From contig CBDHDR010000002.1 of NCBI GenBank assembly GCA_965261815.1, forward strand, positions 1,223,820 to 1,255,819: DNA of 32,000 bases, in the 5' to 3' direction. Made by a program: the position numbers and the translations under genes. This document shows, piece after piece, positions 11,883 through 30,522 of this stretch; positions within the stretch are counted from its first letter, which is position 1; each line of letters starts with the position of its first letter. Below the pieces are notes generated by a model. It saw only the letters and a list, made by a program, of their open reading frames with translations. It did not search any database and was not told where the DNA came from. The DNA is from Dehalococcoidia bacterium. Lineage in GTDB: Bacteria; Chloroflexota; Dehalococcoidia; Lucifugimonadales; CAZENU01.

Positions 11883-12317
11883 CTACGCCGGCTCCGCAAC
11901 GAACACCGGGATCGTGCGTGACGTCCGATTCTGGTAGTCCTCGTAGGGTGGGAACGCCGACACCGCCAGGTCCCACAACCGCGCCCGCTCCTCGGCGTCC
12001 TCGACCTCGCGGACGCGCATCTCGAACACCTCGGTCCGGTCCCGAATCTCCACGTCGGCGTGCGCCCGGAGGTTGTATACCCACACCGGGTTCTCCGGCG
12101 CGCCGCCCTTCGAGCCCACCAGTATGTAGCTGCTCCCGTCCTTAACCCGCATCAGCGGCGTCTTGCGTATCGCGCCCGTCCGGTTCCCCGTGTTCGTCAC
12201 GATGATGACGGGCAGCCCGGTATCGCGCAGGGTCGTTCCCTCCGTGCCCCCGCTGCTCTCGTAGAGCTCCACCTGCTCGCGTACCCAGTCTGACGGGGAC
12301 GGTATGTACTCTGCCAT
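11883..12317 (-). CDS. nitroreductase-family deazaflavin (F420H2)-dependent oxidoreductase, Ddn/FDOR-A-like
   Basis: 144 aa from the internal ATG (12317), preceded by GGAGCAAGGA. WVREQVELYESSGG...GLPVIIVTNTGNRTGAIRKTPLMRV...GSKGGAPENPVWVYNL is typical of this family. TATAAT on the minus strand at 12361-12366. Confidence 0.85.
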   Translation of the reverse strand: MAEYIPSPSDWVREQVELYESSGGTEGTTLRDTGLPVIIVTNTGNRTGAIRKTPLMRVKDGSSYILVGSKGGAPENPVWVYNLRAHADVEIRDRTEVFEMRVREVEDAEERARLWDLAVSAFPPYEDYQNRTSRTIPVFVAEPA

Positions 12318-12528
12318 AGTTCGTTCCTTGCTCCTGATCGCCGACGGCTTTGCCTTCATCATTATAGGTCGAAGAAGGCTTGGCTCATCCGCCTGCTCAG
12401 GCTGCCCAACGGTATCGCATCTCACGACACCTTCGGTCGGGTCTCCGCGCTGACGGAGCAGGTCGGGGTTCTGTCGGATGGCCGAGCGATGGGCGAGACG
12501 CGGGGCCGGAATCCAGAGTTCAGCGGGA

Positions 12529-14495: not shown

Positions 14496-14670
14496 GAACC
14501 GGGAACGTCAGGAAAGCGGGCGGCGCTGCCCGTCTCGAGCCAGTGAGTCTAAGCATAGGTGGGCAAAGAACTGGCCTGTTCGGAGCGCAGAACGGACCAC
14601 AGCGTGAAGGCCACAGCCCGGTTGGCTGGACACGAGTTCGACGTGCTAGGACTTCCGTCCTTCTCCGAGA

Positions 14671-15225
14671 TTAGTCGTCGCTCTGCTGGAGCCCTTCAAC
14701 GCTTAGTTCCAAGTGTGCGGCCGCCTCGACATACATCTGAACGGTCGCCTTATCTAGATGTATTGTCCGGACGTCCCTTCCATGTGCTATGAGATTCCGC
14801 ACAGCAGCCATATCTTGAAGGACTGCAGCTAACGAATCGTCGATGACACCGTCCTTGCGCAGTAACTCGACTTGCTTTCGTATCGACGCCCGTCGACTTA
14901 CGTGGCGCGTCTCAGCAAGGTCTGCAATGGCTCTTTCGACCGAGGCCCATGACGCAAGAATCGTAATCCTTGGATCAGTATCGACATAAAAGGTTCTTGG
15001 CGATAAGTCTTCGTCTACCGCCTCCAGCGACCTAGTCTTCTTTGTGAGTTCCTGAAAGACGGGTCTGAAGTCCACTTGCCAGTCCTTGTATCTGACCTTC
15101 TCTATGAGAGGGACTAGTTTAGACAGAGGGGACCGTAGCATGAGAAGGGCCACAACCGCGACCAACGGCCAGGCCGCAGCATCAAGTAGAGAAACTAGCA
15201 ATTCAACTAGCTCCACACCAGTCAA
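14671..15225 (-). CDS. membrane-anchored protein with C-terminal HEPN/Abi_C-like RN-x-x-x-AHG motif
   Basis: 184 aa. TTG start after AAGGA. One hydrophobic helix (AAAWPLVAVVALLMLRSPL). C-terminal ILASWASVERAI...LQDMAAVRNLIAHGRDV gives Rx4H. Lies in the low-GC islet. Confidence 0.6.
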   Translation of the reverse strand: MTGVELVELLVSLLDAAAWPLVAVVALLMLRSPLSKLVPLIEKVRYKDWQVDFRPVFQELTKKTRSLEAVDEDLSPRTFYVDTDPRITILASWASVERAIADLAETRHVSRRASIRKQVELLRKDGVIDDSLAAVLQDMAAVRNLIAHGRDVRTIHLDKATVQMYVEAAAHLELSVEGLQQSDD

Positions 15226-15369
15226 CGTCCTTGTCTCCTCTCCCCTACGAAAGAACTTGGCACCCTAGTCAGCGACCCTGTATCAGCCGGTTGCTAGGGT
15301 TCGAGCTCTTCCGCCGGAGTTCAGCACGCGTTCGAGATGTGCTATGTCCAAGACTCAGCGGATAAGATG

Positions 15370-16797
15370 TCAAATGCGTAATGTCAGTCGTAGCTGCTCG
15401 TACTTCTCGTCACTCCCAATGTTACTAAGTCGGTCCCTCCGGTACGTTCCGATAAAGTCCAGCATTTCCTTCAGTCGCGGGTTAATGGCTCGCGTCTTCA
15501 GGGTGGCGGTGAGCCTTTGATACTCGGTTGCACAGGAGTCGAATTGCAGTCGTGAAGCTACCTCAGGATCGAGTACAAGCTTGACGAATGCTCGGATGTG
15601 AGAGTCTGAGAATCTAGTCAACAATTCGTCGTAGTGGTCTTGGGCAGCCCAGGAAACACCATAGCCATTCCCGATCCGACACATGGTTACCGCTTTGACG
15701 TACTTTGATCGCACGGGCCTAGGGACTTCACCATTGGCCGGTACAAGGCGTTGAAGAAGCCGCGCTGGGGCTGCCTCGGTAAAGAAGTTGTCCATGCCGT
15801 AGTGAGCTGTGGTGAGATTGTCAAGAGTCACCGCCATTTCGGCAGTAAGTACTTCAGTCGTGAGAAACTCCAAACCCTCGACTATTTCAAGGAATTCTCG
15901 TGCGAGTTTCGCCCTTTCCACCTCACCATTAGCCGCGAGCATCGCATGTTGCAAGCCGACTCCTCGGCGCGCCTCGGTTGAAACAGCCTCCCAGATCGGT
16001 TTCGCAGCTAGTTTGAGATTGTCTCTGACGTGAGCGTCAACCGTCGTGTCCGTGTACATGCCGAATACCGAGCGAAGTAACGATTCTGACAGGTCCTCAG
16101 TTAGCGATGGCAATGCCGCTTCGATGTGTGGCATGTCGGCTTCAGAGAGGTGCTGTGTCCGCAGGCTGTGAAGCAGTTTACGAACTTCGATAACCGGACC
16201 GGCAGGTTCCTTTGCCAAAACCTCCACTATGCACGTCTCTAGCCAGGATATAATCTGTAGTCCTGTTATATGATTCTGATTTGGATGTGCAGCACTAGCG
16301 TAGTTCCTCATATTCCGAACATAGTCGAGATGGCGAAAACCGTTTTCTGTGATGATACCGGTCGTGCGGCACCCTAGAATGAGTTCCCAATCGTCAAGCT
16401 TCTCCAAGTCGGCTTCGTTCCTGAGCTTGGATCGGCGGGTTGAGTCGCTAACCGCGCTGTCGAAGAAATACCGTAGATCGAACCGAGCCACCTTCTCCCG
16501 CAGATTCCTAACGGTTTCATTCCAGATATAGTTCAACGCTGAGTCGAAGAGGCCGACAGCGCATGCAGCCACGAACTTGGAAATGTAAGACGCGACCGAC
16601 TTTTGGTCGTCCGTCAAGGACTCGAGAACGATAGGCATATTTTGGAATACCGGACGCCGACGTTCGTAAGGGACCAGGATCTGGTCTTTAGGTAGCCCTA
16701 CGTAGTCCAAATAGGAGTCGAGTTGAGTGCCAAAAGTCTTGACGGCTGGGGCAATCTCTGCACTTGAGTGGGCTTGAATACTCTCGTTGGTGTCCAT
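15370..16797 (-). CDS. hypothetical 475-aa protein with N-terminal HEPN/Abi_C-like module and helical C-terminal domain
   Basis: GGAGG RBS 6 nt upstream of ATG 16797. FRHLDYVRNMRNYASAAHPNQ gives an R-x4-6-H type signature after a helical segment (AACAVGLFDSALNYIWNETVRNLREKV). Sampled lines about 45-50% GC. Confidence 0.6.
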   Translation of the reverse strand: MDTNESIQAHSSAEIAPAVKTFGTQLDSYLDYVGLPKDQILVPYERRRPVFQNMPIVLESLTDDQKSVASYISKFVAACAVGLFDSALNYIWNETVRNLREKVARFDLRYFFDSAVSDSTRRSKLRNEADLEKLDDWELILGCRTTGIITENGFRHLDYVRNMRNYASAAHPNQNHITGLQIISWLETCIVEVLAKEPAGPVIEVRKLLHSLRTQHLSEADMPHIEAALPSLTEDLSESLLRSVFGMYTDTTVDAHVRDNLKLAAKPIWEAVSTEARRGVGLQHAMLAANGEVERAKLAREFLEIVEGLEFLTTEVLTAEMAVTLDNLTTAHYGMDNFFTEAAPARLLQRLVPANGEVPRPVRSKYVKAVTMCRIGNGYGVSWAAQDHYDELLTRFSDSHIRAFVKLVLDPEVASRLQFDSCATEYQRLTATLKTRAINPRLKEMLDFIGTYRRDRLSNIGSDEKYEQLRLTLRI

Positions 16798-17164
16798 TCG
16801 AAGCCTCCAGTACGAAGCCTAAAGGCGAATCGGCGACTGCTTCGAGGCAAACCGTACGCCAGAGACACCACGATTCGCCGTGCTGCCATGAAGGATCTGC
16901 CGCCGAGTCACCAAGTAATATCTCCGTACCGCATTATAGCGATCTGCCCAGCCAAAGCTCGACGGCGGTGCCGACAAGGACACGCTGGCCCTGCTCAGCC
17001 CCAGCAGCTCGCGTCCCCTACGGCGGTTGGGGCTGTTTTTGTAGTTTGTGGTGGCCTGCCGTCTGCCATCGCGCTTGCTGTAACGTCCCTTGAGGTGAGC
17101 CGATCACGGGCGCTCGTGATTGGCTTCGCGTCGCTACCCGGCGGCGGTGATGTATCATATCCGC

Positions 17165-18049
17165 ATGAGTACCACGTCAGACATCAGGGTCGGCGTCCTG
17201 TTCCCGACCACGGAGATCGGGACGGACCCGGTCGTCATACGGGACTACGCCCAGACCGTCGAGGGGCTGGGCTACGACCACATGCTCTTCTTCGAGCACG
17301 TCCTCGGCGCCAACGCCGAGTCGCCGCAGGCGCGCGGCAAGCCCTGGCAGCACACGACGCCATACCACGAGCCATTCACGCTGTTCGGCTACCTTGCGTC
17401 TGTTACCGAGTCGATAGAGTTTGCCACCTGCATCATGGTGCTGCCGCTGCGCGAGACGGCGCTCGTCGCCAAGCAGGCGGCGGCCGTCGACGTGCTGTCC
17501 GGCGGACGGCTGAGACTCGGCGTTGCCGTCGGGCTCAACGACGTCGAGTACGAAGCGATGGGAAAAACCTTCCACGACCGTGGCGCGCGCATGGAGGAGC
17601 AGATCGAAGTGCTCAGGCTGCTCTGGACGCGCGAGCTCGTCACCTTCGAGGGCCGCTGGCACAAGATCACCGATGCCGGCATCAACCCGCTGCCGGTCCG
17701 TCGGCCTATACCGCTGTGGATCGGCGGCGGGGCAGACCCCGTAGTGCGACGCATCGGCCGCCTTGCCGACGGCTGGATGCTGCCGGGCACCATGCGGCAG
17801 CCGGACGACGCCGCGCGCGCCATCGACACGATGAGGGACCACGCCCGGCGGGCGGGCCGAGACCCCGACGAGATCGGCCTGCAGCGGGTCGTCTCCGGCG
17901 ATGGCCCGGCGGAGTGGGCAGACTCTGTCCGCGAGTGGCGTCTCCTCGGGGTTACCCACTTCGCGGTCAGCCCGAGCGGGCCGACGCCGGACGCGCAGTT
18001 CGAGAAGCTGCGGCAGTTCCGGGAAGTCGTATCCGAGGTGGGCGCCTGA
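17165..18049 (+). CDS. LLM-class (luciferase-like) F420-dependent oxidoreductase
   Basis: 294 aa from ATG 17165. VGVLFPTTEIGTDPVVIRDYAQTVEGLGYDH...GGRLRLGVAVGLNDVEYEAMG...INPLPVRRPIPLWIGG is typical of the LLM TIM-barrel family. Confidence 0.85.
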   Translation: MSTTSDIRVGVLFPTTEIGTDPVVIRDYAQTVEGLGYDHMLFFEHVLGANAESPQARGKPWQHTTPYHEPFTLFGYLASVTESIEFATCIMVLPLRETALVAKQAAAVDVLSGGRLRLGVAVGLNDVEYEAMGKTFHDRGARMEEQIEVLRLLWTRELVTFEGRWHKITDAGINPLPVRRPIPLWIGGGADPVVRRIGRLADGWMLPGTMRQPDDAARAIDTMRDHARRAGRDPDEIGLQRVVSGDGPAEWADSVREWRLLGVTHFAVSPSGPTPDAQFEKLRQFREVVSEVGA

Positions 18050-18912
18050 TGAGAATCGGGGTAGTCTTCCCGCAGATCGAGATCGGGCCCGACCCCGTGG
18101 CCGTCCGCGACTACGCGCAGGCGGCGGAGTCGCTGGGGTACGCCCACGTGTTGGCCTACGACCACGTGCTCGGAGCCAACGCCGGCAGCCGACCCGGCTG
18201 GAGCGGCGCGTACAGGCACACCGACCAGTTCCACGAGGTGATGGTCCTGTTCGCATACGTCGCCGGGCTGACCGAGACGGTGGAGTTGGTCACCGGCATC
18301 CTCATACTGCCCCAGAGGCAGACGGCGCTCGTCGCCAAGCAGACGGCCGAGGTCGACATACTCAGCGGCGGCCGGCTGAGGCTCGGCATAGGCATCGGCT
18401 GGAACGACGTAGAGTACGAGGCGCTGAGCGAGGACTTCGGCAACCGCGGGCGGCGGTCCGAGGAGCAGATCGAGGTGCTCCGGCTGCTGTGGACGAACGA
18501 GCTGGTCACATACCGGGGCCGCTGGCATACGGTCGACGACGGCGGTATCAACCCGCTGCCGGTACAGAGGCCGATCCCGGTGTGGTTCGGCGGGATGGAC
18601 GAGCGCGTCCTGAAGCGGTTGGCCAGGGTCGGCGACGGCTGGATGCCCCAGGGCGGCCCGGACGACCGGCTGCGCGCCATGGCAGAGCGCGTCAGGACCT
18701 ACGCTCGCGAAGCCGGCCGCGACCCCGACGAGATCGGCGTCGACGGCAGGCTGACCATCCAAGGCACACCCGACGACTGGGCCCGAGATCTGGCCGGCTG
18801 GCAAGACCTCGGGGCCACCCACGTGTCCCTGACCACGACGGGCGCCGGCCTGCAGACGCCCCAGGACCACATCGACGCGATCACCCGGTTCAAAGAGGCG
18901 GTCCTGCGGTAG
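18049..18912 (+). CDS. LLM-class F420-dependent oxidoreductase (tandem paralogue)
   Basis: ATG 18049 overlaps the upstream stop (TGATG). The product is colinear with the preceding gene (MRIGVVFPQIEIGPDPVAVRDYAQAAESLGYAH...GGRLRLGIGIGWNDVEYEAL...). Confidence 0.85.
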   Translation: MRIGVVFPQIEIGPDPVAVRDYAQAAESLGYAHVLAYDHVLGANAGSRPGWSGAYRHTDQFHEVMVLFAYVAGLTETVELVTGILILPQRQTALVAKQTAEVDILSGGRLRLGIGIGWNDVEYEALSEDFGNRGRRSEEQIEVLRLLWTNELVTYRGRWHTVDDGGINPLPVQRPIPVWFGGMDERVLKRLARVGDGWMPQGGPDDRLRAMAERVRTYAREAGRDPDEIGVDGRLTIQGTPDDWARDLAGWQDLGATHVSLTTTGAGLQTPQDHIDAITRFKEAVLR

Positions 18913-18968
18913 CGCGGTATGCTGAAGGCGCTCGCCAGGACTGCGAAGAACCGCCAAACAAGGATACG

Positions 18969-20087
18969 ATGACAGAGGCGAGCCAACTCAAGCGGACTCC
19001 CCTGTACGACACCCACCTCGAGCTCGGCGGGCGGATGATGCCCTTCGGCGGCTGGGACATGCCGGTGCAGTACACGGGCATCCTCAACGAGGCCCGGGCC
19101 GTCAGGTCCAACGCCGGCCTGTTCGACGTCTCGCACATGGGCCGCATCGATATCAGCGGGCCGGACGCGGTGTCGCTGCTGAACCGGGTGCTCAGCGTTG
19201 ACGTGCCGAAGCTGCGGAGACGAAGGGCGCGCTACGGCGTCATATGCAACCTCGACGGCGGGATCATCGACGACACGATCGTCTACCGGCTGGGCAGAGA
19301 GCGGTTCCTGCTGGTCCCGAACGCCTCCAACGCGGACACCGTAGCCGACTGGCTGCTCCGCTGGCGAAGGGGCTCCGACGAGGTCGACGTCAATGTCATC
19401 ACCGACGAGCTCGCGATGATCGCGCACCAGGGACCCACGGCGCAGCTCATGTTGTCCGGGCTGACCGACCACGATCTGTCCTCGCTGCGGCTGTTCAGGG
19501 CTGCGGAGACCGAGATCGCGGGCGCGCCCTCCATCGTGGCCCGCACCGGCTACACGGGCGAGGACGGCTTCGAGCTGATGGTCCCCGCCGGCGACGCCGC
19601 GAGAATATGGCGGGCGCTGAGCGACGCCGGCGCGGTGCCGTGCGGGCTCGGAGCGCGGGACGTGCTGCGTCTGGAGGCGGGGCTGCCCCTTCACGGCAAC
19701 GACATCGACGCGGGCACCAACCCGTACGAGGCCGGGCTGGGCAGGTTCGTAGACCTCGACCGGGACGAGTACGTCGCCAGGGAGTCCTTGATACGCCTCC
19801 GGGACGCGGGCCCGGCCCGCAGGCTGGTCGGCTTCGACGTGGTCGGACGAGGCATCGCGCGACAGGGCCACGCCATCGTCGCAGGAGACGAGCGCGTCGG
19901 CGAGGTTACCAGCGGAAGCTACTCTCCCACGCTTGACAGGGCAATAGGCATGGGCTATGTTCGAGAAGACTTGTCGGATCCTGGGACTCCCCTCCACGTG
20001 GATGTCCGGGGCCGTATGGTGGAGGCCGAAGTGGCGTTGCTTCCCTTCTACGCCGAGCGGCAGGCCCCCATACTCGCGCCCATATAG
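18969..20087 (+). CDS. gcvT: glycine cleavage system aminomethyltransferase (T protein)
   Basis: KRTPLYDTHLELGGRMMPFGGWDMPVQYTGILNEARAVRSNAGLFDVSHMGR and RTGYTGEDGFEL. Confidence 0.93.
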   Translation: MTEASQLKRTPLYDTHLELGGRMMPFGGWDMPVQYTGILNEARAVRSNAGLFDVSHMGRIDISGPDAVSLLNRVLSVDVPKLRRRRARYGVICNLDGGIIDDTIVYRLGRERFLLVPNASNADTVADWLLRWRRGSDEVDVNVITDELAMIAHQGPTAQLMLSGLTDHDLSSLRLFRAAETEIAGAPSIVARTGYTGEDGFELMVPAGDAARIWRALSDAGAVPCGLGARDVLRLEAGLPLHGNDIDAGTNPYEAGLGRFVDLDRDEYVARESLIRLRDAGPARRLVGFDVVGRGIARQGHAIVAGDERVGEVTSGSYSPTLDRAIGMGYVREDLSDPGTPLHVDVRGRMVEAEVALLPFYAERQAPILAPI

Positions 20088-20129
20088 GCTGGAAGAGTCC
20101 CCCGTCACATACATTCCCCTGTACCCGCG

Positions 20130-20135
20130 TATAAT
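20130..20135 (+). promoter_or_regulatory. consensus TATAAT -10 box placed for a leaderless gcvH transcript
   Basis: TATAAT at 20130-20135, then 6 nt (gagcgc), then ATG 20142. No Shine-Dalgarno in the 54-nt gcvT-gcvH spacer. Confidence 0.35.
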
Positions 20136-20141
20136 GAGCGC

Positions 20142-20531
20142 ATGACGAACCCCTCAGATCGCAGATACATCCAGGAGCACGACTGGGTACGCGTGGGCGC
20201 CGACGGGCTGGCGACCTTCGGGATCACCGACCACGCCCAGGACAGCCTTGGAGACGTGGTGTTCGTAGACCTTCCCGATCCGGGCGCGAAGGTCCTGCGG
20301 GCCGAGCCGTTCGGGGAGATCGAGTCCGTCAAGGCCGTGTCGGAGCTCGTCGCACCGACGAGCGGGACAGTCGTCGAGCGCAACGAGGCCGTCGTAGGCG
20401 CTCCGGAGCTGGTCAACGAGTCGCCCTTCGAGGACGGGTGGCTGGTGAGGGTGGAGTTGGCGGACGCGTCCGAGCTGGACGGCCTGATGTCCGCGGAGGA
20501 GTACGACGCGTTCCTCGTGTCCGGGTCCTAA
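20142..20531 (+). CDS. gcvH: glycine cleavage system H protein (lipoyl carrier)
   Basis: FGITDHAQDSLGDVVFVDLP...GEIESVKAVSELVAPTSG, with the lipoyl-lysine in ESVKA. Confidence 0.93.
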   Translation: MTNPSDRRYIQEHDWVRVGADGLATFGITDHAQDSLGDVVFVDLPDPGAKVLRAEPFGEIESVKAVSELVAPTSGTVVERNEAVVGAPELVNESPFEDGWLVRVELADASELDGLMSAEEYDAFLVSGS

Positions 20532-20552: not shown

Positions 20553-21875
20553 ATGGGCTTCACCTCACCCTACACGCCGAACACCGACTCCGACCGGCGG
20601 ACCATGTTGGACGCTATCGGCGTCGACTCCGTGAATGACCTCTTTTCCGACATCCCCGCGGAGCACCGCAACCCTGAGCTGGACCTGCCGGCGCCCACTT
20701 CGGAGCTCGAGCTGCGCCGGGAGATCGAGGCCATGGCGGCAGAGAACGTCACGCCCGGCAGGTACTCGTCCTTCCTGGGCGGAGGCTCGTACCGCCACTT
20801 CGTCCCCGCTGTGGTGCGGCAGATCGCCTCCCGCAGCGAGTTCATGACCAGCTACACGCCGTACCAGCCCGAGGTCTCCCAGGGCACGCTGCAGGCGCAC
20901 TACGAGTTCCAGTCGATGGTGTGCCAGCTCACCGGGATGGAGGTCGCCAACGCCGGCATGTACGACGGATCGACGTCCATGGCCGAAGCCGTGCTCATGG
21001 CCGCCAGGCTGACCAGGAGAGACCGTGTCGCCGTGCTCGACACGGTGTCGCCGTACTACCGGGACGTGCTGGCCACCTACGTGCAGGCGCCCGGCCTGCG
21101 GATCAACACCGTGCCGCCGGGCGACGACACGCTCGCCGAGGACACGGCGTGCCTGGTCGTACAGCAGCCGGGTTTTCTGGGCTACATGGATGACCTGGAG
21201 GTCCTCTCCCGCAGGGCTCACGACCGCGGCGCGCTGCTGATCGTCGTGGCGGACCCGGTATCCCTGGCGATGTTCAGGCCCCCCAGCGACTACGACGCCG
21301 ACATCGTCGTAGCCGAGGGACAGACTCTGGGCATCGCGCCTACCTACGGCGGGCCGTACGTCGGCATATTCGCCTGCAAACAACGGTACGTGCGGCAGAT
21401 GCCGGGCCGCATCGTCGGCCGGACCGTGGACTCGCGCGGCCGCACCGGGTACGTGCTCACGCTCCAGGCAAGGGAGCAGCACATCCGCCGCGAGAAGGCC
21501 ACCTCCAACATATGCACGTCGGTCGGGCTCATCGCGCTCATGTCCGCGGTCTACATGGCCTCGCAGGGCAAGCGCGGACTGCGGCACGTCGCCGAGCTCT
21601 GCTACCACAAGGCCCACTACGCCGCGTCGTTGGTCCAGGACATCCCCGGGTACTCCCTCCCGATCGGCGGGACCTTCTTCCGCGAGTTCGTCGTCCGATG
21701 TCCGAAGCCTCCCGAGGAGACCAACCGCCTCCTGTTGGAGCGCGGCATCATCGGCGGTCTCGACGTCAGCGACCAGGTGCCCAACGGAATGCTGATCTGC
21801 TGCACCGAGGTGAACAGCAGGGAGGAGATAGATTCCCTGGCCAGAGCATTGGCCGAGATAGGCGGCGCCGATTGA
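20553..21875 (+). CDS. gcvPA: glycine dehydrogenase (aminomethyl-transferring) subunit 1
   Basis: PYTPNTDSDRRTMLDAIGV...FLGGGSYRHFVP...TSYTPYQPEVSQGTLQ...REQHIRREKATSNICT. Confidence 0.93.
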   Translation: MGFTSPYTPNTDSDRRTMLDAIGVDSVNDLFSDIPAEHRNPELDLPAPTSELELRREIEAMAAENVTPGRYSSFLGGGSYRHFVPAVVRQIASRSEFMTSYTPYQPEVSQGTLQAHYEFQSMVCQLTGMEVANAGMYDGSTSMAEAVLMAARLTRRDRVAVLDTVSPYYRDVLATYVQAPGLRINTVPPGDDTLAEDTACLVVQQPGFLGYMDDLEVLSRRAHDRGALLIVVADPVSLAMFRPPSDYDADIVVAEGQTLGIAPTYGGPYVGIFACKQRYVRQMPGRIVGRTVDSRGRTGYVLTLQAREQHIRREKATSNICTSVGLIALMSAVYMASQGKRGLRHVAELCYHKAHYAASLVQDIPGYSLPIGGTFFREFVVRCPKPPEETNRLLLERGIIGGLDVSDQVPNGMLICCTEVNSREEIDSLARALAEIGGAD

Positions 21876-23359
21876 ACGCGGCCAGCCGAAACGGCGACGA
21901 CCGGCGCCGCCAGCTGCTGATGGACCGCAGCGTCCCCGGCAGGCTGGGCACGACCCTGCCCCTGCTGGACGTGCCCGCCCAGGACCTGCCGCCGTCGGAG
22001 ATGCTGCGCGACTCGCTGGAGATGCCCGAGGTGGCCGAGGGAGAGCTGGTCCGCTACTTCTCGCAGATCAGCCAGTTCAACTTCTCCATCGACCATAACT
22101 TCTACCCGCTTGGGAGTTGCACCATGAAGTACAACCCCAAGCTCAACGACGAGATGGCGGGGCTCCCCGGGATGTCGGAGATCCACCCTCACCAGCCCGA
22201 GTCGACCGTACAGGGCGCGCTGAGGCTCGTGTTCGAGCTGCAGAGCTACCTGACCGAGATATCGGGCATGGCGGCGACGAGCCTGGCGCCCAAGGCCGGC
22301 GCCGAGAGCGAGCTGGCGGGGATGCTCATGGCGCGCGCCTACCATCTCGCCAACGGCGGCGGCGACCGCCGGGACGTGCTCGTCCCCGACAGCGCACACG
22401 GCACCAACCCGGCCTCCGCGGCGATGGCCGGCTTCAGGCTCGTCGAGCTGCCCTCCGACGCGTCCGGCAACACCGACCTCGACGCGCTGCAGGCCGCCAC
22501 GGGCGACGGTCTGGCCGCCTTCATGCTCACGCAGCCAAGCACCTTGGGGTTGTTCGACACCAACATCCTGGAGGTCACCCGAATCGTTCGCGCCGCGGGC
22601 GGCGTGGTCTACGGCGACGGTGCCAACCTGAATGCGCTGCTGGGCCGCGTGAAGCTGGGAGAGCTTGGCTTCGACGTGGTCCACTCGAACCTGCACAAGA
22701 CGTTCACGCAGCCCCACGGCGGCGGCGGGCCGGGAGCCGGCGCGGTCATGGTCAGCGAGCGGCTGGTGCCGTTCCTGCCGACGCCCGTCGTGGAGCGGCT
22801 GGAAGAGGATGGCGAGACACGGTACGCGCTGGGGTCTCCCCCGCAGTCGATCGGCCGTATGGGCGCCTTTCACGGCAACTTCGGCGCCCTCGTCCGCGCC
22901 TACTCGTACATCCGGACGCTCGGCAACGAAGGTATATCTCAGATCAGCGAGGACGCGGTCATCAACGCCAACTACGTGCTGAGCCAGCTCAGGGACGACT
23001 ACGTGCTGCCGTACGACCGCACCTGCTTCCACGAGGTCGTGCTGTCCGCCAGCAACCTGAAGCGCGACCACGGCGTCACCGCCCTGGACGTGGCCAAGCG
23101 GCTGATCGACTACGGGATACACCCGCCGACGATGTACTTCCCGCTGATCGTCGACGAGGCGCTGATGATCGAGCCGACCGAGACCGAGAGCCTCGAGACG
23201 CTCGACCACTTCGTCGCGGTCATGAAGGCAATCGCCCGCGAGGCCCGCGACGACCCCGAGCTCGTTCGCTCGGCTCCCCACGACACGCCGAACTCGCGCC
23301 TGGACGAGGCGCGCGCGGCACGGCAGCCGGACCTGCGCTGGCGGCCGGCCTCGGAATGA
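21872..23359 (+). CDS. gcvPB: glycine dehydrogenase (aminomethyl-transferring) subunit 2
   Basis: YPLGSCTMKYNPK, PDSAHGTNPASA, NLHKTF (PLP lysine). Start assigned to TTG 21872, which overlaps the gcvPA stop (ATTGA) so that the conserved N-terminal LLMDRSVPGR segment is retained. ATG 21920 is the alternative. Confidence 0.85.
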   Translation: MNAASRNGDDRRRQLLMDRSVPGRLGTTLPLLDVPAQDLPPSEMLRDSLEMPEVAEGELVRYFSQISQFNFSIDHNFYPLGSCTMKYNPKLNDEMAGLPGMSEIHPHQPESTVQGALRLVFELQSYLTEISGMAATSLAPKAGAESELAGMLMARAYHLANGGGDRRDVLVPDSAHGTNPASAAMAGFRLVELPSDASGNTDLDALQAATGDGLAAFMLTQPSTLGLFDTNILEVTRIVRAAGGVVYGDGANLNALLGRVKLGELGFDVVHSNLHKTFTQPHGGGGPGAGAVMVSERLVPFLPTPVVERLEEDGETRYALGSPPQSIGRMGAFHGNFGALVRAYSYIRTLGNEGISQISEDAVINANYVLSQLRDDYVLPYDRTCFHEVVLSASNLKRDHGVTALDVAKRLIDYGIHPPTMYFPLIVDEALMIEPTETESLETLDHFVAVMKAIAREARDDPELVRSAPHDTPNSRLDEARAARQPDLRWRPASE

Positions 23360-23393
23360 ATCTACACCCGCTCACCCGGACAGGAGGACAGAC

Positions 23394-23846
23394 ATGGTGG
23401 AAATAGGCGACACGGCACCGGACTTCACGCTGGTCGACCAGAATCGGAACGAGGTGACGCTCAGCCAGCTCCGCGGCGAAAAGAGCGTCGTACTCTCGTG
23501 GCACATACACTCCTTCACCGGCGGCTGAACGGACCAGGTCTCCTCGTTCCGGGCCGCGAACCCGGACTTCGAGGAGAAGAATGCCCAGGTACTGGGCATT
23601 AGCACGAACGCACAGCCGGCCCAGAACGCCTACTCGGTATCGCTGGGGAATATCCCCTACCCGATCCTGAGCGACTTCTACCCGCACGGCGAGGTCGCAC
23701 GGCAGTACGGGGTCTTCAACGACGAGACCGGGGTCTCGTTCCGGGCGATCTTCGTCGTTGACAAGGACGGCGTCGTCCGGTTCAAGCGCGTCTACACCAG
23801 CGCGGGCGACATCAGCATCGACGAGGTGCTGGCGGCCGTCGGCTAG
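23394..23846 (+). CDS. peroxiredoxin (AhpC/TSA-Bcp family) with in-frame UGA at the peroxidatic position: candidate selenocysteine peroxiredoxin 1
   Basis: AGGAGG RBS, ATG 23394. Hand translation: MVEIGDTAPDFTLVDQNRNEVTLSQLRGEKSVVLSWHIHSFTGG-TGA(23526-23528)-TDQVSSF...AQVLGISTN...YPILSDFYPHGEVARQYGV...RAIFVVDKDGVVR...; TAG at 23844-23846. The frame stays open and Prx-like for 105 codons after the TGA. Confidence 0.75.
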
Positions 23847-23899
23847 TCCCGGCGGCCCCGGCTACCGGGCATGATGGTGAAACCCAGCGCGCGCCCCTC

Positions 23900-23992
23900 G
23901 AGTAGCGCCGATGAAACATCGGCGCTACTCGGGGTGAACGGGTTGCGGGGAGTTCAACTCCGAACAGTCACCGGCCGCGACTTACCGGTTGC
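23900..23992 (+). other. conserved structured intergenic motif, copy B
   Basis: Perfect 14-bp hairpin GAGTAGCGCCGATG-aaa-CATCGGCGCTACTC (23900-23930), then ACTCGGGGTGAACGGG...CAACTCCGAACAGTCACC, then a further stem. Matches copy A at 11748-11790. Confidence 0.45.
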
Positions 23993-24088
23993 GGTGGGAC
24001 GGCGGCCGCCGGGCTGGCGACTGCCCCAGGCCTGGGGCAGTCATCACGTCGAGTCGCTTCGAGCCGACGGTAGAGCCTTGTGCGGTTG

Positions 24089-24096
24089 CTATAATG
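24089..24096 (+). promoter_or_regulatory. candidate extended -10 promoter (TGcTATAAT) for the second Sec-peroxiredoxin gene
   Basis: TGCTATAAT ends at 24096, 28 nt upstream of ATG 24125. AGGAGG RBS lies in between. Confidence 0.4.
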
Positions 24097-24124
24097 GCGC
24101 CGTCTCGTCCAGGAGGTACGCCTC

Positions 24125-24640
24125 ATGATCGGAGTCGGCAGCCGGGCCCCGGACTTCACCCTCGTCGACCACAACAAGCGCGGCGTCACCCTGAGCGGCT
24201 ACCGGGGCCGCAAGAACGTCGTCCTGTCGTTTCACGTCTACACCTTTACGGACGGCTGACGGGACCAGATTCTCTCGTTCATGGCGATAGGCCGTCAGTT
24301 CGAGAAGAGGGATACCCAGGTACTGGGTATTAGCACCGACGCCAGGCCGACGCAGGCCGCCTACTACCTGTGCATGGGCCCCACGCTCTACTACCCGATA
24401 CCGCTGCTGAGCGACTTCCATCCGAAGGGCGAGGTCAGCCGCCTATACGGCGTATACGACGACGAAAAGGGCACGGCCAAGCGCGCCGTGATCATGATCG
24501 ACAAGGACGGCGTCGTGCGCTCGGCCCGGCTCTACACCAGCGTCATCAAGGCCGGAACGACCGGCCAGGCCTACGTAGAGTCGGATCTCGACGCGGCCAA
24601 CGTCCTCACCGAGCTCGACCAGGTGTTGCCCGCCGACTAA
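24125..24640 (+). CDS. peroxiredoxin (AhpC/TSA-Bcp family) with in-frame UGA at the peroxidatic position: candidate selenocysteine peroxiredoxin 2
   Basis: ATG 24125. MIGVGSRAPDFTLVDHNKRGVTLSGYRGRKNVVLSFHVYTFTDG-TGA(24257-24259)-RDQILSF... continues in the same frame into track ORF 24281..24640 (TQVLGISTD...PLLSDFHPKGEVSRLYGV...RAVIMIDKDGVVR). The TGA is codon 45, as in paralogue 1. Confidence 0.75.
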
Positions 24641-24680: not shown

Positions 24681-25508
24681 ATGACCGACCAGACCCCACG
24701 GTACATATTCGAGGAAGGCGACTACGCCCTCGTCGTCGACAGGCGGGGGCGGCGCTACTTCGTGCGCCTCAAGGCGGACGGGAACTTCAACTCGCACCTG
24801 GGACACTTCCGCCACGACGTCCTGATCGGCCAACCCGAGGGCGCACGCGTCGAGACGTCCAAGGGCCACTGGATGCTGGCCGTGAAGCCGACGATGGCCG
24901 ATTTCACCCGCGAGATGCCCCGCATCGCCACCATCGTGTACCCGAAGGACCTCGGCGCGGTGGTCGTATACGGCGACCTGTTCCCCGGCGCGCGGGTACT
25001 CGAGGCCGGCAGCGGCTCGGGCGCCCTGACCATGGCCATCGCCCGCGCCGTCGGCCGGGATGGCATGGTCGTGTCGTATGACGTGCGCGAGGACATGACC
25101 GAGCGGGCCCGGGAGAACGTCGCCTACATGCTGCCGGACCACTCATGGGTCACCTTCAAGAAGGGCGACGTCTACGAGGGCTTCGAGGAGACCGAGCTCG
25201 ACCGGGTGGTGCTGGACCTGCCGGAGCCATGGCACGTGGTGCCCCACGCGCTGCGGGCGCTGGTCCCCGGCGGCATCTTCCTCGCCTTCGTGCCGACGGT
25301 CGTGCAGTTCCACGAGGTCACGCGAGCGCTCAGGGGCGAGCGCTCGTTCGAGCTGATCGAGACGTTGGAGATTCTGATGCGTCCGTGGGAGGTCTCCGGA
25401 CGCAGCGTCAGACCGTCGCATCGCATGGTCGGCCACACCGGCTTCATAACCACCGCCCGCAAGTGCGCGCCGCGACAGACCTCGGACGACGACCAAGCCG
25501 ACGAGTAG
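24681..25508 (+). CDS. trmI: tRNA (adenine58-N1)-methyltransferase TrmI/GCD14 family
   Basis: FEEGDYALVVDRRGRRYFVRL...RIATIVYPKDLGAVV...GARVLEAGSGSGALT...VVLDLPEPW. Confidence 0.85.
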   Translation: MTDQTPRYIFEEGDYALVVDRRGRRYFVRLKADGNFNSHLGHFRHDVLIGQPEGARVETSKGHWMLAVKPTMADFTREMPRIATIVYPKDLGAVVVYGDLFPGARVLEAGSGSGALTMAIARAVGRDGMVVSYDVREDMTERARENVAYMLPDHSWVTFKKGDVYEGFEETELDRVVLDLPEPWHVVPHALRALVPGGIFLAFVPTVVQFHEVTRALRGERSFELIETLEILMRPWEVSGRSVRPSHRMVGHTGFITTARKCAPRQTSDDDQADE

Positions 25509-27891: not shown

Positions 27892-30522
27892 CTAGTGGGC
27901 TGAACGAACAAGATTCAAGCAATATTGATTGGCCGGGTCCCGTTCCAACCCAATGTTCGCTATATCGAGCGCCCTGCTAGTGTTGCCAATGTTTCGATAA
28001 AGCCAAGCAAGTCGGGAGCAATCCGTAGCGGTTAGTATATTCAAACGTCGTTCCATCGCCTGACTTGCTCGTTCAATCAGTTCCTGAAGTCCTCCAGACC
28101 ACGCTACTTCAACATTCCGCCTCTTGAGCTCGCTGAGAAGAATGTTTAGGCGATTCGCATTTCTGCTTATCTCTTCCCTGTCGGAAGTTGACAGCAACAT
28201 CGCCTCGCTCAAAGCATGGACCGCTCCAAGCCAGTCTTCCCTCCGTTCGCAAAGCCCCGCAAGTCTCAACCACGCGTCCAGCCGATCAGGTGGAGCTGCG
28301 ACTTCTAAGAAGCTCCTTAGGTAACGTATTGCCCGTTCCATCGCATCGGAAGAGTCGTCGACTTCCATCACCAAGTCTGCGAGTCTAAGATATGCTTTTG
28401 GTACCCTCTCTGCCAAATACTCCAAGACCGGCAAGACTTCGTCCAGCGTCTCTGCCTCCTCGCTTGCGCGTTTTGCTACGGCCTGGACAAGATTATCAAT
28501 CCTCGGTAGCACTCCACGCGCAGCGTCCTCTTGTTTCCCCGCCCCGAATTCCATCAAAAGTTTTCGGTCCTGCTCAATCGCGGCTTTGAACGGGCTCACT
28601 TCCAGCTTCCGCCGTCCGTATTCTGCTGCCGCAAGTGGAACGCCGACAAAAGCCCCCCCTCCTTCCAAAGAGTCTTCAACAAAGCCGACTCGATCCACTA
28701 GAGAATAGCGACTCAGCTCTTCCAATGCGCTAGATACATCAAACCGCTCCGTGCCGGGACGGAGGGATACCGCCTCAACAGCGACCTCTGGCACAAAGAC
28801 TCGCCAGCTGCATAGCAAGAGAAACACTCGCTGTCCAGCAAGGCTCAACGCGCTATATGTTCTTTGGAAAAGAGACCGTAGCAAATCGTCAGACGATGCA
28901 ACAACACGTCTCGGAGCCACCGCTTGTCCTTCTTTGGCAACTGCTCCGAGCAGAATCTTGATAACATATGGATGACCGTCAGATTCTCGAATCAGTGTTT
29001 CCTTGTATGTTGGAGTAAGGAGACTGACAATGCCTAGACGGCTTGCGTGTTCGTCAATAAGCCAATTCGCCTCTTCGTCGGTCATGCCACCTATCTCAAT
29101 ATGGTAGTCGCCAACAAAGCTTCTGAATCGGGTCGTGATCAACACCTTATTGGGTGGCCGAACGTAAGTGTCAACCCATTTGAATGCATCAGAGGGATTC
29201 TGCATGGTTTCGAAATTATCAAGTACAAAGAGAGTCGGCTCTCCCCAAGCGCCTTTTTCTAGGCAGTCCTGGAAGTAGGCCCGTCGATCGAGCTTACCGT
29301 TGGCCGTATGGGCCGCCTCCAGCAGGTCTACTGCGGCATCCGCAATGTTGTCTTCTGTCACAACTCGCGGCGAAACAGGCTTTGGTCCGAATTCAAGGAG
29401 ATCGATGTCTCGAGCACTTATCCAAAGAATGACCTTGTAAGGTGGGGCCTCTTGGCTAACAATTTCACGAATAGCTGAGATGGCGATCGTGGTCTTTCCT
29501 ACACCTCCCGGACCAGTCAACGACACTATAGGATGCTGTTCGAAATTCACCAACTCTTCTCTAACCCGACTCTCTAAGACGTTCCTAGCAATGTGACCAA
29601 TCGGCATCGGAGGAACGTTTGCGAACGTGTTACCAAGGATCTCAAGCTCCGCACTGCCTTCAGTTTCGCTCGAAGGGAGACGCGAAGGAGGGTCTGACCA
29701 CTCCGAGCCATCCTTGATCGTCACGTCGTTTGTTATATACGACAGCGCCTCGAAATGGTTACTTTTGTAATTGCCGTTAGGTAACGCAATATCGCGGATG
29801 TCAGGATCAGAAAACACAAGAGGAGTATGGATAGGACGATCGCAGTAGAAATATACTCCATCCTGTAGCTGAACATTCCTCTCTCTCTTCAGATAGTCGA
29901 AAGGTGACGTGTCGGATAATAGTGGCGATACACGATATTTCCCCGACAGGTTTTGATGAAGATGAACCCAAGGGATTCCAAATATCACCAAGTTGTCGAC
30001 GACAGCACTCAAAGCTTCGGCGAGGCTAGGGCAACATCGGGCACACTGTTCGGTTGTAGGGGCTCCGTGTCCTCGGCTTCTATTTCGGAAGCTAACGCAA
30101 AGATCGAAGAATTGTCGCAATGATACGCGGTTGCTCAACTGAGCCTCAACTCCTATCTCGTTCGCCGCTTGGGCCATATTGGCCACGGCTGCAAACCGCC
30201 AATCTCCGTGACCTACTCTCTGGGTTAAATCTCTCACTAAGTCAAGTGCGTTGCCGCTAAAGAGTTGGCTGGATGGTCCAATCAAAGCAGCATGAAGAGT
30301 CTCAATCCAATTGCCAAACGAGTCAGTCCGAAGTAGTCGATGCTCCAGGGAGTACCGCTGCCGATCTACGTCGTCGCCGACACATGCCACAACTCCAGCT
30401 GTGACTATCTTTGCCAAATATTCGAGTTTTAGGCTCAGAGCGTGGAAGTACGCATGATCGCCATCTTCTTTGTCGAGTGCAACGCGAGTATCCATCCGCT
30501 CGAATAGGAGATTCTGTACCAT
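27892..30522 (-). CDS. STAND (NB-ARC-type) P-loop NTPase with RN-x-x-x-GHG N-terminal module and TPR-like C-terminal region: candidate antiviral NLR/Avs-like protein
   Basis: 876 aa. Walker A LTGPGGVGKTT, Walker B LFVLDNFE, NB-ARC-like KVLITTRF and GHPYVIKIL, winged-helix-like LEELSRYSLVD. N-terminal roughly 330 aa contain CVSFRNRSRGHGAPT. C-terminus is helical-repeat-like (AWLYRNIGNTSRALDIANIGLERDP). Sampled lines about 50% GC. Confidence 0.8.
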   Translation of the reverse strand: MVQNLLFERMDTRVALDKEDGDHAYFHALSLKLEYLAKIVTAGVVACVGDDVDRQRYSLEHRLLRTDSFGNWIETLHAALIGPSSQLFSGNALDLVRDLTQRVGHGDWRFAAVANMAQAANEIGVEAQLSNRVSLRQFFDLCVSFRNRSRGHGAPTTEQCARCCPSLAEALSAVVDNLVIFGIPWVHLHQNLSGKYRVSPLLSDTSPFDYLKRERNVQLQDGVYFYCDRPIHTPLVFSDPDIRDIALPNGNYKSNHFEALSYITNDVTIKDGSEWSDPPSRLPSSETEGSAELEILGNTFANVPPMPIGHIARNVLESRVREELVNFEQHPIVSLTGPGGVGKTTIAISAIREIVSQEAPPYKVILWISARDIDLLEFGPKPVSPRVVTEDNIADAAVDLLEAAHTANGKLDRRAYFQDCLEKGAWGEPTLFVLDNFETMQNPSDAFKWVDTYVRPPNKVLITTRFRSFVGDYHIEIGGMTDEEANWLIDEHASRLGIVSLLTPTYKETLIRESDGHPYVIKILLGAVAKEGQAVAPRRVVASSDDLLRSLFQRTYSALSLAGQRVFLLLCSWRVFVPEVAVEAVSLRPGTERFDVSSALEELSRYSLVDRVGFVEDSLEGGGAFVGVPLAAAEYGRRKLEVSPFKAAIEQDRKLLMEFGAGKQEDAARGVLPRIDNLVQAVAKRASEEAETLDEVLPVLEYLAERVPKAYLRLADLVMEVDDSSDAMERAIRYLRSFLEVAAPPDRLDAWLRLAGLCERREDWLGAVHALSEAMLLSTSDREEISRNANRLNILLSELKRRNVEVAWSGGLQELIERASQAMERRLNILTATDCSRLAWLYRNIGNTSRALDIANIGLERDPANQYCLNLVRSAH

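Follow-up and report, generated by a model that had tools for sequence, protein, structure and literature searches.

Tandem AhpE-type peroxiredoxin genes from a Dehalococcoidia bacterium with a probable selenocysteine codon at the catalytic position and two conserved hairpins downstream

Selenocysteine (Sec)-containing peroxiredoxins with a T-x-x-U active site form an experimentally verified selenoprotein family (PrxU, 2001, cited in PMC13188914), and a 2006 survey of bacterial genomes counted 12 peroxiredoxin selenoproteins and 5 cysteine (Cys)-to-Sec events (PMC1794560). The published model of the bacterial Sec insertion sequence (bSECIS) element consists of one hairpin with a G in the first two loop positions, located 16 to 37 nucleotides (nt) from the UGA, and the commonest published apical-loop pattern is N1-G-[G/U]-N-N2 (PMC13188914); according to a 2026 review, some known selenoprotein genes deviate from this model. 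Here, we analyzed a 32-kb stretch of DNA from an uncultured Dehalococcoidia bacterium (contig CBDHDR010000002.1, positions 1,223,820 to 1,255,819; this whole stretch is called the window below) that contains two tandem genes, prx1 and prx2, each with TGA as codon 45. A sequence-only reading of the window had proposed that they encode Sec-containing peroxiredoxins, for which it could rightly point to the verified T-x-x-U family, and our analysis indicates that both are very probably genuine selenoprotein genes in which UGA is read as Sec. Like PrxU of Eubacterium acidaminophilum, the two genes predict proteins with the AhpC/TSA fold and with UGA at the peroxidatic residue of T-x-x-U. As in the known Sec peroxiredoxins, a stem-loop inside the gene directly follows the UGA, Cys-containing homologues are widespread, and the family seems abundant in ocean metagenomes. 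Unlike the known Sec peroxiredoxins, prx1 and prx2 have Ile or Val in place of the proline of the active-site motif and a second conserved hairpin after the first.

Both reading frames lie on the plus strand. The prx1 gene (23394 to 23846) starts with an ATG at 23394, 6 nt downstream from an AGGAGG ribosome-binding site (23382 to 23387), and has its TGA at 23526 to 23528 in the context SFTGG-TGA-TDQ, beyond which the frame stays open for 105 codons up to a TAG stop (23844 to 23846). The prx2 gene (24125 to 24640) is likewise preceded by AGGAGG (24111 to 24116), starts with an ATG at 24125, and has its TGA at 24257 to 24259 in the context TFTDG-TGA-RDQ, followed by 126 open codons and a TAA stop (24638 to 24640). 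Both ribosome-binding sites, the position of TGA as codon 45, and the lengths of the open frames had been part of the sequence-only reading and were confirmed from the sequence; the two ribosome-binding sites are also conserved in L001, the closest relative, a 3.46-Mb metagenomic contig that contains the same tandem pair. If codon 45 is read as Sec, the predicted products comprise 150 residues for prx1 (identified by translation, Pfam, and its match to AhpE) and 171 residues for prx2 (translation, Pfam, and comparison with prx1). The two are 55% identical, and prx2 differs from its paralogue by a 3-residue insertion ahead of the LSDF motif and by a C-terminal extension.

The window has a GC content of 64%, and the GC content at third codon positions (GC3) is a strong marker of coding frames there. 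For prx1, GC3 is 0.84 upstream and 0.92 downstream of the TGA, and for prx2 it is 0.93 and 0.88, respectively. A six-frame scan of the window for TGAs that lie in frame between two flanks of coding-type composition picked out the prx2 site alone; the prx1 site narrowly missed the upstream filter, and no other gene was flagged. Gene callers split both genes, as had been anticipated, with 44 residues in the first piece and 85 to 125 residues in the C-terminal one. Standard annotation pipelines would miss or split both genes, and in the protein collection the family is seen mostly as C-terminal fragments or as products with Trp at the catalytic site.

The peroxiredoxin identity of both frames is well founded: the read-through products match Pfam family AhpC-TSA (PF00578; curated cutoff, 26 bits) with E values of 1.8e-33 (115.6 bits) for prx1 and 1.5e-27 (96.4 bits) for prx2. 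The top PDB matches are all to Mycobacterium tuberculosis AhpE (Rv2238c/MT2298; 1XXU, 1XVW, and 4X0X; E ∼ 1e-32; residues 1 to 133), a one-Cys, mycoredoxin-dependent peroxiredoxin, and actinobacterial AhpE-like homologues are 42 to 48% identical. Residue 45 of both products aligns with Cys45 of AhpE, its peroxidatic cysteine; Thr42 and the catalytic Arg (Arg117 in prx1 and Arg120 in prx2) are conserved and align with AhpE Thr42 and the AhpE Arg column. The products also belong to the length class of AhpE. No cysteine occurs anywhere in the prx1 product, which thus has no resolving Cys and would be a one-Sec enzyme; prx2 has a single cysteine, C83, which is absent from a prx2-like protein from another sample (P0005). 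Judged by their sequences, prx1 and prx2 are AhpE-type peroxiredoxins with one catalytic residue and without a resolving cysteine. They differ from AhpE in having predicted Sec for Cys45, Ile or Val for Pro38 (codons 23505 to 23507 in prx1 and 24236 to 24238 in prx2), a host from the Chloroflexota, and a gene neighborhood with gcvPB upstream and trmI downstream. Chloroflexota would not be expected to possess mycothiol and mycoredoxin.

A closer kinship to PrxU, which the sequence-only reading had cited as an example, did not hold up. The PrxU model (NCBIfam NF040737) is the best NCBIfam match of both products, but the scores of 66.6 bits (prx1) and 59.5 bits (prx2) are far below the equivalog cutoff of 270 bits, so that neither gene is a PrxU ortholog; the PrxU profile, moreover, spans 233 positions, compared to products of 150 and 171 residues.

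Scans of genomes and metagenomes yielded 160 loci; the gene counts given here add the window, L001, and three contigs that were looked up separately. At the catalytic column, 102 genes have TGA and 61 genes have TGC or TGT. In the alignment to Cys-containing homologues, the TGA of prx1 and, by translation, homologue alignment, and the window scan, that of prx2 fall in the peroxidatic Sec/Cys column that also holds AhpE Cys45. The TGA forms come from Dehalococcoidia/Chloroflexota genomes, from contigs that are largely marine, and from one Betaproteobacteria genome bin, while the Cys forms are mostly from Actinobacteria. Matches in the protein collection were of three kinds, namely, full-length proteins with W45, C-terminal fragments of 85 to 104 residues, and full-length proteins with Cys45, most of which are actinobacterial AhpE-like proteins, with a few closer relatives among them. 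The only W45 protein that was traced to its DNA, P0001, has TGA at that codon in its short contig, L091, so that its Trp looks like the result of a gene call with translation table 4 and not like a TGG codon. Among 92 distinct TGA forms, position 38 is Val in 50, Ile in 36, and Pro in 6; the aligned Cys forms retain the proline there, with the exception of two close relatives of the Sec forms.

Three loci with other codons at the catalytic position were also observed. A close homologue in L082 (GCA_044345325.1; codon at 653 to 655) has a true TGC for Cys and retains both of the hairpins described below, which suggests a recent Sec-to-Cys change. One homologue found in two samples (L083, 1223 to 1225, and L084) has TCA for Ser at codon 45, keeps the first hairpin, and has one mismatch in the second; it may be an inactive or repurposed variant.

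The tandem pair of L001 keeps both TGAs at a protein identity of about 90% to the window, and its downstream sequence, which had been named as the place where decay should become visible, is not degenerate. Downstream of the TGA, 14 codon differences between window and L001 are synonymous and 10 nonsynonymous in prx1, and 23 are synonymous and 10 nonsynonymous in prx2; synonymous differences exceed nonsynonymous ones on both sides of the TGA, which excludes pseudogenes.

Directly after the UGA, both genes can form a hairpin of the SECIS type (H1) that starts 13 nt after the U of the UGA. In prx1, H1 (23539 to 23577, plus strand; from folding and covariation) has stems of 8 and 6 bp, and 25 nt separate its apical loop, CCGCGAA, from the UGA; in prx2, the apical loop of H1 (24270 to 24308, plus strand; from folding) is GAUAG, and the distance is 26 nt. 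In distance and in adequate stability, H1 resembles published SECIS elements. The 80-nt fold of prx1 has a free energy of −37.7 kcal/mol and a z score of −4.14 relative to shuffled sequences. Over the 48 nt after the catalytic codon, the mean fold z score is −3.05 for 24 TGA forms compared to +0.12 for 60 Cys forms (Mann-Whitney, P = 5e-11), and a structure of the kind that Sec insertion would need is thus found where it had been sought. In a gapless, 80-nt alignment of 59 TGA forms (alignment A5), the lower helix of H1 (columns 14 to 21/45 to 52) is paired in 85.6% of cells, with compensatory changes in all eight pairs, while the upper helix drifts in register and is paired in 55% of cells. 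None of 500 shuffles reached the values observed for the whole structure, and sliding the partner columns by 1 to 3 positions lowered pairing from 79.5% to 37 to 46%. Over the 92 distinct TGA sequences, the same H1 columns are paired in 81.9% of cells, compared to 53.8% in Cys forms.

A second hairpin (H2), which the sequence-only reading had not mentioned and which the published bacterial SECIS model lacks, begins two nucleotides after H1; it has 8 to 9 bp and a GUN loop in the TGA forms, with a perfect 9-bp stem in both window genes. In prx1, H2 (23580 to 23600, plus strand) reads AAUGCCCAG-GUA-CUGGGCAUU, with 9 bp and a 3-nt loop or, with the closing pair open, a GGUAC loop; in prx2, H2 (24311 to 24331, plus strand) reads GAUACCCAG-GUA-CUGGGUAUU and shows a compensatory change from G-C to A-U relative to prx1. 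The center of H2 is the Val codon of the conserved Q-V-L-G-I-S motif. In alignment A5, H2 (columns 55 to 63/67 to 75) is paired in 90.4% of cells; over the 92 distinct TGA sequences, the value is 90.0%, compared to 61.4% in Cys forms, and 91 of the 92 keep at least 7 of the 8 core pairs. In pair 58-72, the partners are the first position of a Thr/Ala codon and the third, synonymous position of a Gly codon; 41 sequences have G-C there, 41 have A-U, 6 have G-U, and 4 have a mismatch, and A-C never occurs. Despite a GC3 of about 0.9, rare codons (GTA, ATT, and GGT) appear within H2 of the window genes, and Cys-form genes with the same amino acid motif are mostly unpaired at H2. The loop with its closing pair is GGUNC in most of the 59 TGA forms, with G-U at columns 64 and 65 in all of them but one. 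H1 and H2 are thus conserved, covarying, and specific to TGA forms.

The two hairpins could share the work in either of two ways. H1 could be the SECIS element proper, with H2 as an accessory, for example, by stacking on H1. The distance of H1 from the UGA is canonical, its stem covaries as well, and H2 could instead stabilize H1 or play some other role. Alternatively, H2 might be the hairpin that binds SelB, with the folded H1 as a spacer that brings H2 to the mRNA entrance of the ribosome paused at the UGA. In favor of this arrangement, at least 7 of 8 core pairs of H2 are kept in nearly all TGA forms, compared to the 17 of 92 with a canonical start of the H1 loop. The GGUNC loop agrees with the commonest apical-loop pattern (PMC13188914), in contrast to most H1 loops of the family, which lack the loop G. 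Covariation at the synonymous site of pair 58-72 and the rare GTA, GGT, and ATT codons in genes of high GC3 point in the same direction, as does L070, the sole TGA form without H2, which has a canonical CGUGC loop in H1. The H2 loop also resembles the A-GGUC-U loop of E. coli fdhF. The distance of the H2 loop from the UGA (about 60 nt), on the other hand, is beyond the 16 to 37 nt of the model, and the G-U of the loop is part of the conserved Val codon and is present in Cys forms too, so that only the stem of H2 is informative. The association of H2 loss with a canonical H1 loop comes from one sequence (P = 0.18). Taken together, it is possible, though we would not favor it, that H2 serves as the SelB site, and we propose only tentatively that the family uses a two-hairpin Sec insertion element in which H2 presents the canonical GGUNC loop and H1 is a compact spacer. 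A literature search for two-hairpin bacterial SECIS elements returned no description of H2. If the proposal is true, the element would represent a distinct class of bacterial SECIS outside the 16-to-37-nt rule of current selenoprotein finders, and H2 is a case that could widen the bacterial SECIS model.

The reading of both TGAs as Sec codons is supported by the Sec/Cys column, by the presence of TGA in 102 genes, by selection on the downstream sequence, by the covarying structure specific to TGA forms, by the use of TGA as an ordinary stop nearby, and by a selenoprotein-rich genome that bears a TGA form. Regarding the last point, BSepDB lists selenoproteins only from species that possess the Sec pathway, and it assigns 46 selenoprotein genes to Dehalococcoidia bacterium 10f4566d-ab44-49ae-b774-fc9f760c6436 and 49 to another Dehalococcoidia genome (PMC13326102); the former genome is the source of one of our loci with a TGA-form homologue (L010). 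The class Dehalococcoidia includes some of the most selenoprotein-rich bacteria on record.

Several results weigh against this reading. ARAGORN found no tRNA gene in the window, which also contains no sel gene, and no sel gene was found in 727 kb of fetched loci, where a tblastn search with an E. coli SelD query gave no match and ARAGORN, run on 21 TGA-form loci, detected no tRNA-Sec. The 80-nt fold of prx2 only modestly beats shuffled sequences (−26.1 kcal/mol; z = −1.66). The minimum-energy H1 loop of prx1, CCGCGAA, has no G in its first two positions, and a canonical G[G/U] start of the H1 loop occurs in only 17 of the 92 TGA forms. Position 38 of both products lacks the Pro that is otherwise universal in the PxxxTxxC/U motif. 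Finally, the published one-hairpin bSECIS model, run as a constrained fold, accepted 18 of 23 TGA forms and 47 of 60 Cys forms (about 78% each). It fits prx2 with the loop GAUAG and prx1 only when the closing pair is opened, so that both genes can be made to satisfy it, but with an equal pass rate among Cys forms the model has no discriminating power, and it was dropped as a line of evidence. In separate analyses, a search of the whole window with Rfam at gathering thresholds gave no match. A heuristic scan of the loci for other selenoprotein genes (in-frame TGAs in a redox-motif context), meant to reveal which SECIS loop the lineage prefers, was discarded as unusable, since its 789 candidates were mostly out-of-frame open reading frames (ORFs) of high-GC DNA.

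Even with these points, we regard Sec as by far the best account of the two codons. Selenium-free read-through, in which a near-cognate Cys- or Trp-tRNA or a Cys-charged tRNA-Sec would yield low levels of an enzyme with Cys or Trp, and in which the hairpins would do no more than promote read-through, could draw on the TGC of L082, with both hairpins in place, and on the TCA of L083/L084, which show that the catalytic position tolerates change in some lineages. We consider it very unlikely: TGA has been kept over deep divergence although a single base change gives Cys, which points to selection for Sec itself; the lineage is on record as selenoprotein rich; and the structure sits where bacterial SECIS elements sit. 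The splitting of both genes by gene callers could be taken as a sign of pseudogenes or of nonsense-split genes in which the TGA terminates translation and the downstream part decays or is separately expressed, but the C-terminal fragments that are called share neither a consistent start nor a frame, the same TGA occupies the same catalytic column in 102 genes across diverged genomes, the downstream sequence has a GC3 of about 0.9 and an excess of synonymous change, and a covarying structure specific to TGA forms follows the codon, so that this explanation is effectively refuted. That UGA stands for a standard amino acid (Trp or Gly, as in codes 4 and 25) might seem to follow from the many database members of the family with W at the position, but it can be set aside with near certainty, as the one such protein that was traced (P0001) has TGA in L091, TGA is the ordinary stop of gcvPA, gcvPB, a luciferase-like gene, and several others in the window, the scan of the 32 kb flagged no further in-frame TGA between coding flanks, just as the sequence-only reading had noted, and an enzyme with Trp or Gly as its peroxidatic residue would be inactive.

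The sequence-only reading had also argued that two independent paralogues with a stop at exactly the catalytic residue speak against pseudogenes. This stands insofar as both TGA genes have been maintained since their duplication, in which the evidential weight of the pair lies. It does not stand as to independence: with 55% identity, a shared TGA, and both hairpins in common, prx1 and prx2 are not independent Sec acquisitions but descendants of one Sec-containing ancestor.

With UGA read as Sec, a ribosome arriving at codon 45 would encounter the RNA structure directly downstream, which would recruit SelB with GTP and Sec-tRNA(Sec), and Sec would be inserted in place of termination. By analogy with peroxiredoxin chemistry, the selenolate at T-x-x-U, aided by Thr42 and Arg117, would then reduce a hydroperoxide and be oxidized to a selenenic acid, which an external thiol reductant would presumably regenerate. 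One speculation prompted by the recurrent gcvPB-prx order described below is that the dihydrolipoyl H-protein (GcvH) might act as this reductant. A lipoyl-dependent AhpC/AhpD system operates in mycobacteria.

Overall, prx1 and prx2 belong to the already known kind of Sec peroxiredoxins and do not overturn current understanding; what distinguishes them is that they are built on an AhpE scaffold, have lost the motif Pro, are duplicated in tandem, and carry a two-hairpin element, with a canonical loop in the second hairpin, about 60 nt away, unlike in published SECIS elements. With them, the antioxidant enzymes of Dehalococcoidia would include a one-Sec peroxidase of the AhpE type without this Pro.

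In the window, the pair directly follows the glycine cleavage genes, in the order gcvT (18903 to 20087), gcvH (20088 to 20531), gcvPA (20553 to 21875), gcvPB (about 21900 to 23359, with a TGA stop at 23357 to 23359), prx1, prx2, a trmI-like tRNA methyltransferase gene (24681 to 25508), and an HD-domain gene. The genes with coordinates are all on the plus strand; gcvT and gcvH were identified by Pfam, gcvPA and gcvPB by 90 to 93% identity to entries in the L001 gene table, and the trmI-like gene by Pfam GCD14/TrmI-like_N. L001 has the order gcvT-gcvH-...-gcvPA-gcvPB-prx1-prx2-trmI-HD, with two genes inserted between gcvPB and prx1, a DNA methylase gene and an unannotated 285-residue gene (L001, 7336 to 9341). 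The trmI gene is the commonest conserved neighbor of TGA forms: where the flanking sequence sufficed, 41 of 81 TGA-form loci have trmI as the next gene downstream and 17 of 78 have gcvPB as the next gene upstream, and loci with short flanks add more gcvPB cases. Among Cys forms, gcvPB is directly upstream in 1 of 58 (L082 only), and trmI was scored directly downstream in none. The order gcvPB, Sec-prx, trmI, and sometimes HD recurs in many Dehalococcoidia and marine contigs at 50 to 75% protein identity, so that the neighborhood is a lineage trait and not an accident of the source genome. Of the juxtaposition with glycine metabolism that had been pointed out for the pair, the position after gcvPB does recur in TGA forms, although trmI recurs more often and L001 has two intervening genes; any functional link to glycine metabolism would be speculative. 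Literature searches on the gene context of PrxU and on selenoproteins of SAR202 returned nothing relevant.

The spacer between prx1 and prx2 (23847 to 24124, 278 nt) is very strongly structured (−155.9 kcal/mol; z = −5.55), with an inverted repeat that has a perfect 18-bp core (arms within 23885 to 23945) and a 12-bp palindrome at 24019 to 24042. Much of it is absent from L001, and it may be a small inserted element or a terminator or processing region. A consensus promoter scan ahead of prx2 found no full −35/−10 site; a possible extended −10 element, TGCTATAAT, lies at 24087 to 24095 on the plus strand, and its TGnTATAAT pattern is conserved in L001 while the flanks diverge, so that prx2 may have its own promoter there.

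Elsewhere in the window, two stretches (14600 to 16800 and 27892 to 30522) have a clearly lower GC content and a weak codon-position signal. One contains a 475-residue ORF without a Pfam match and the other an 876-residue NB-ARC/AAA_16 (STAND-type) nucleoside triphosphatase gene, in the corresponding place of which L001 has a pair of PIN-domain genes; both stretches are probably acquired islands. Two tandem luciferase-like monooxygenase genes and an F420H2-dependent quinone reductase gene (17120 to 18912 and 11883 to 12425) were also observed and, together with their marine relatives, would fit a SAR202-like member of the Dehalococcoidia.

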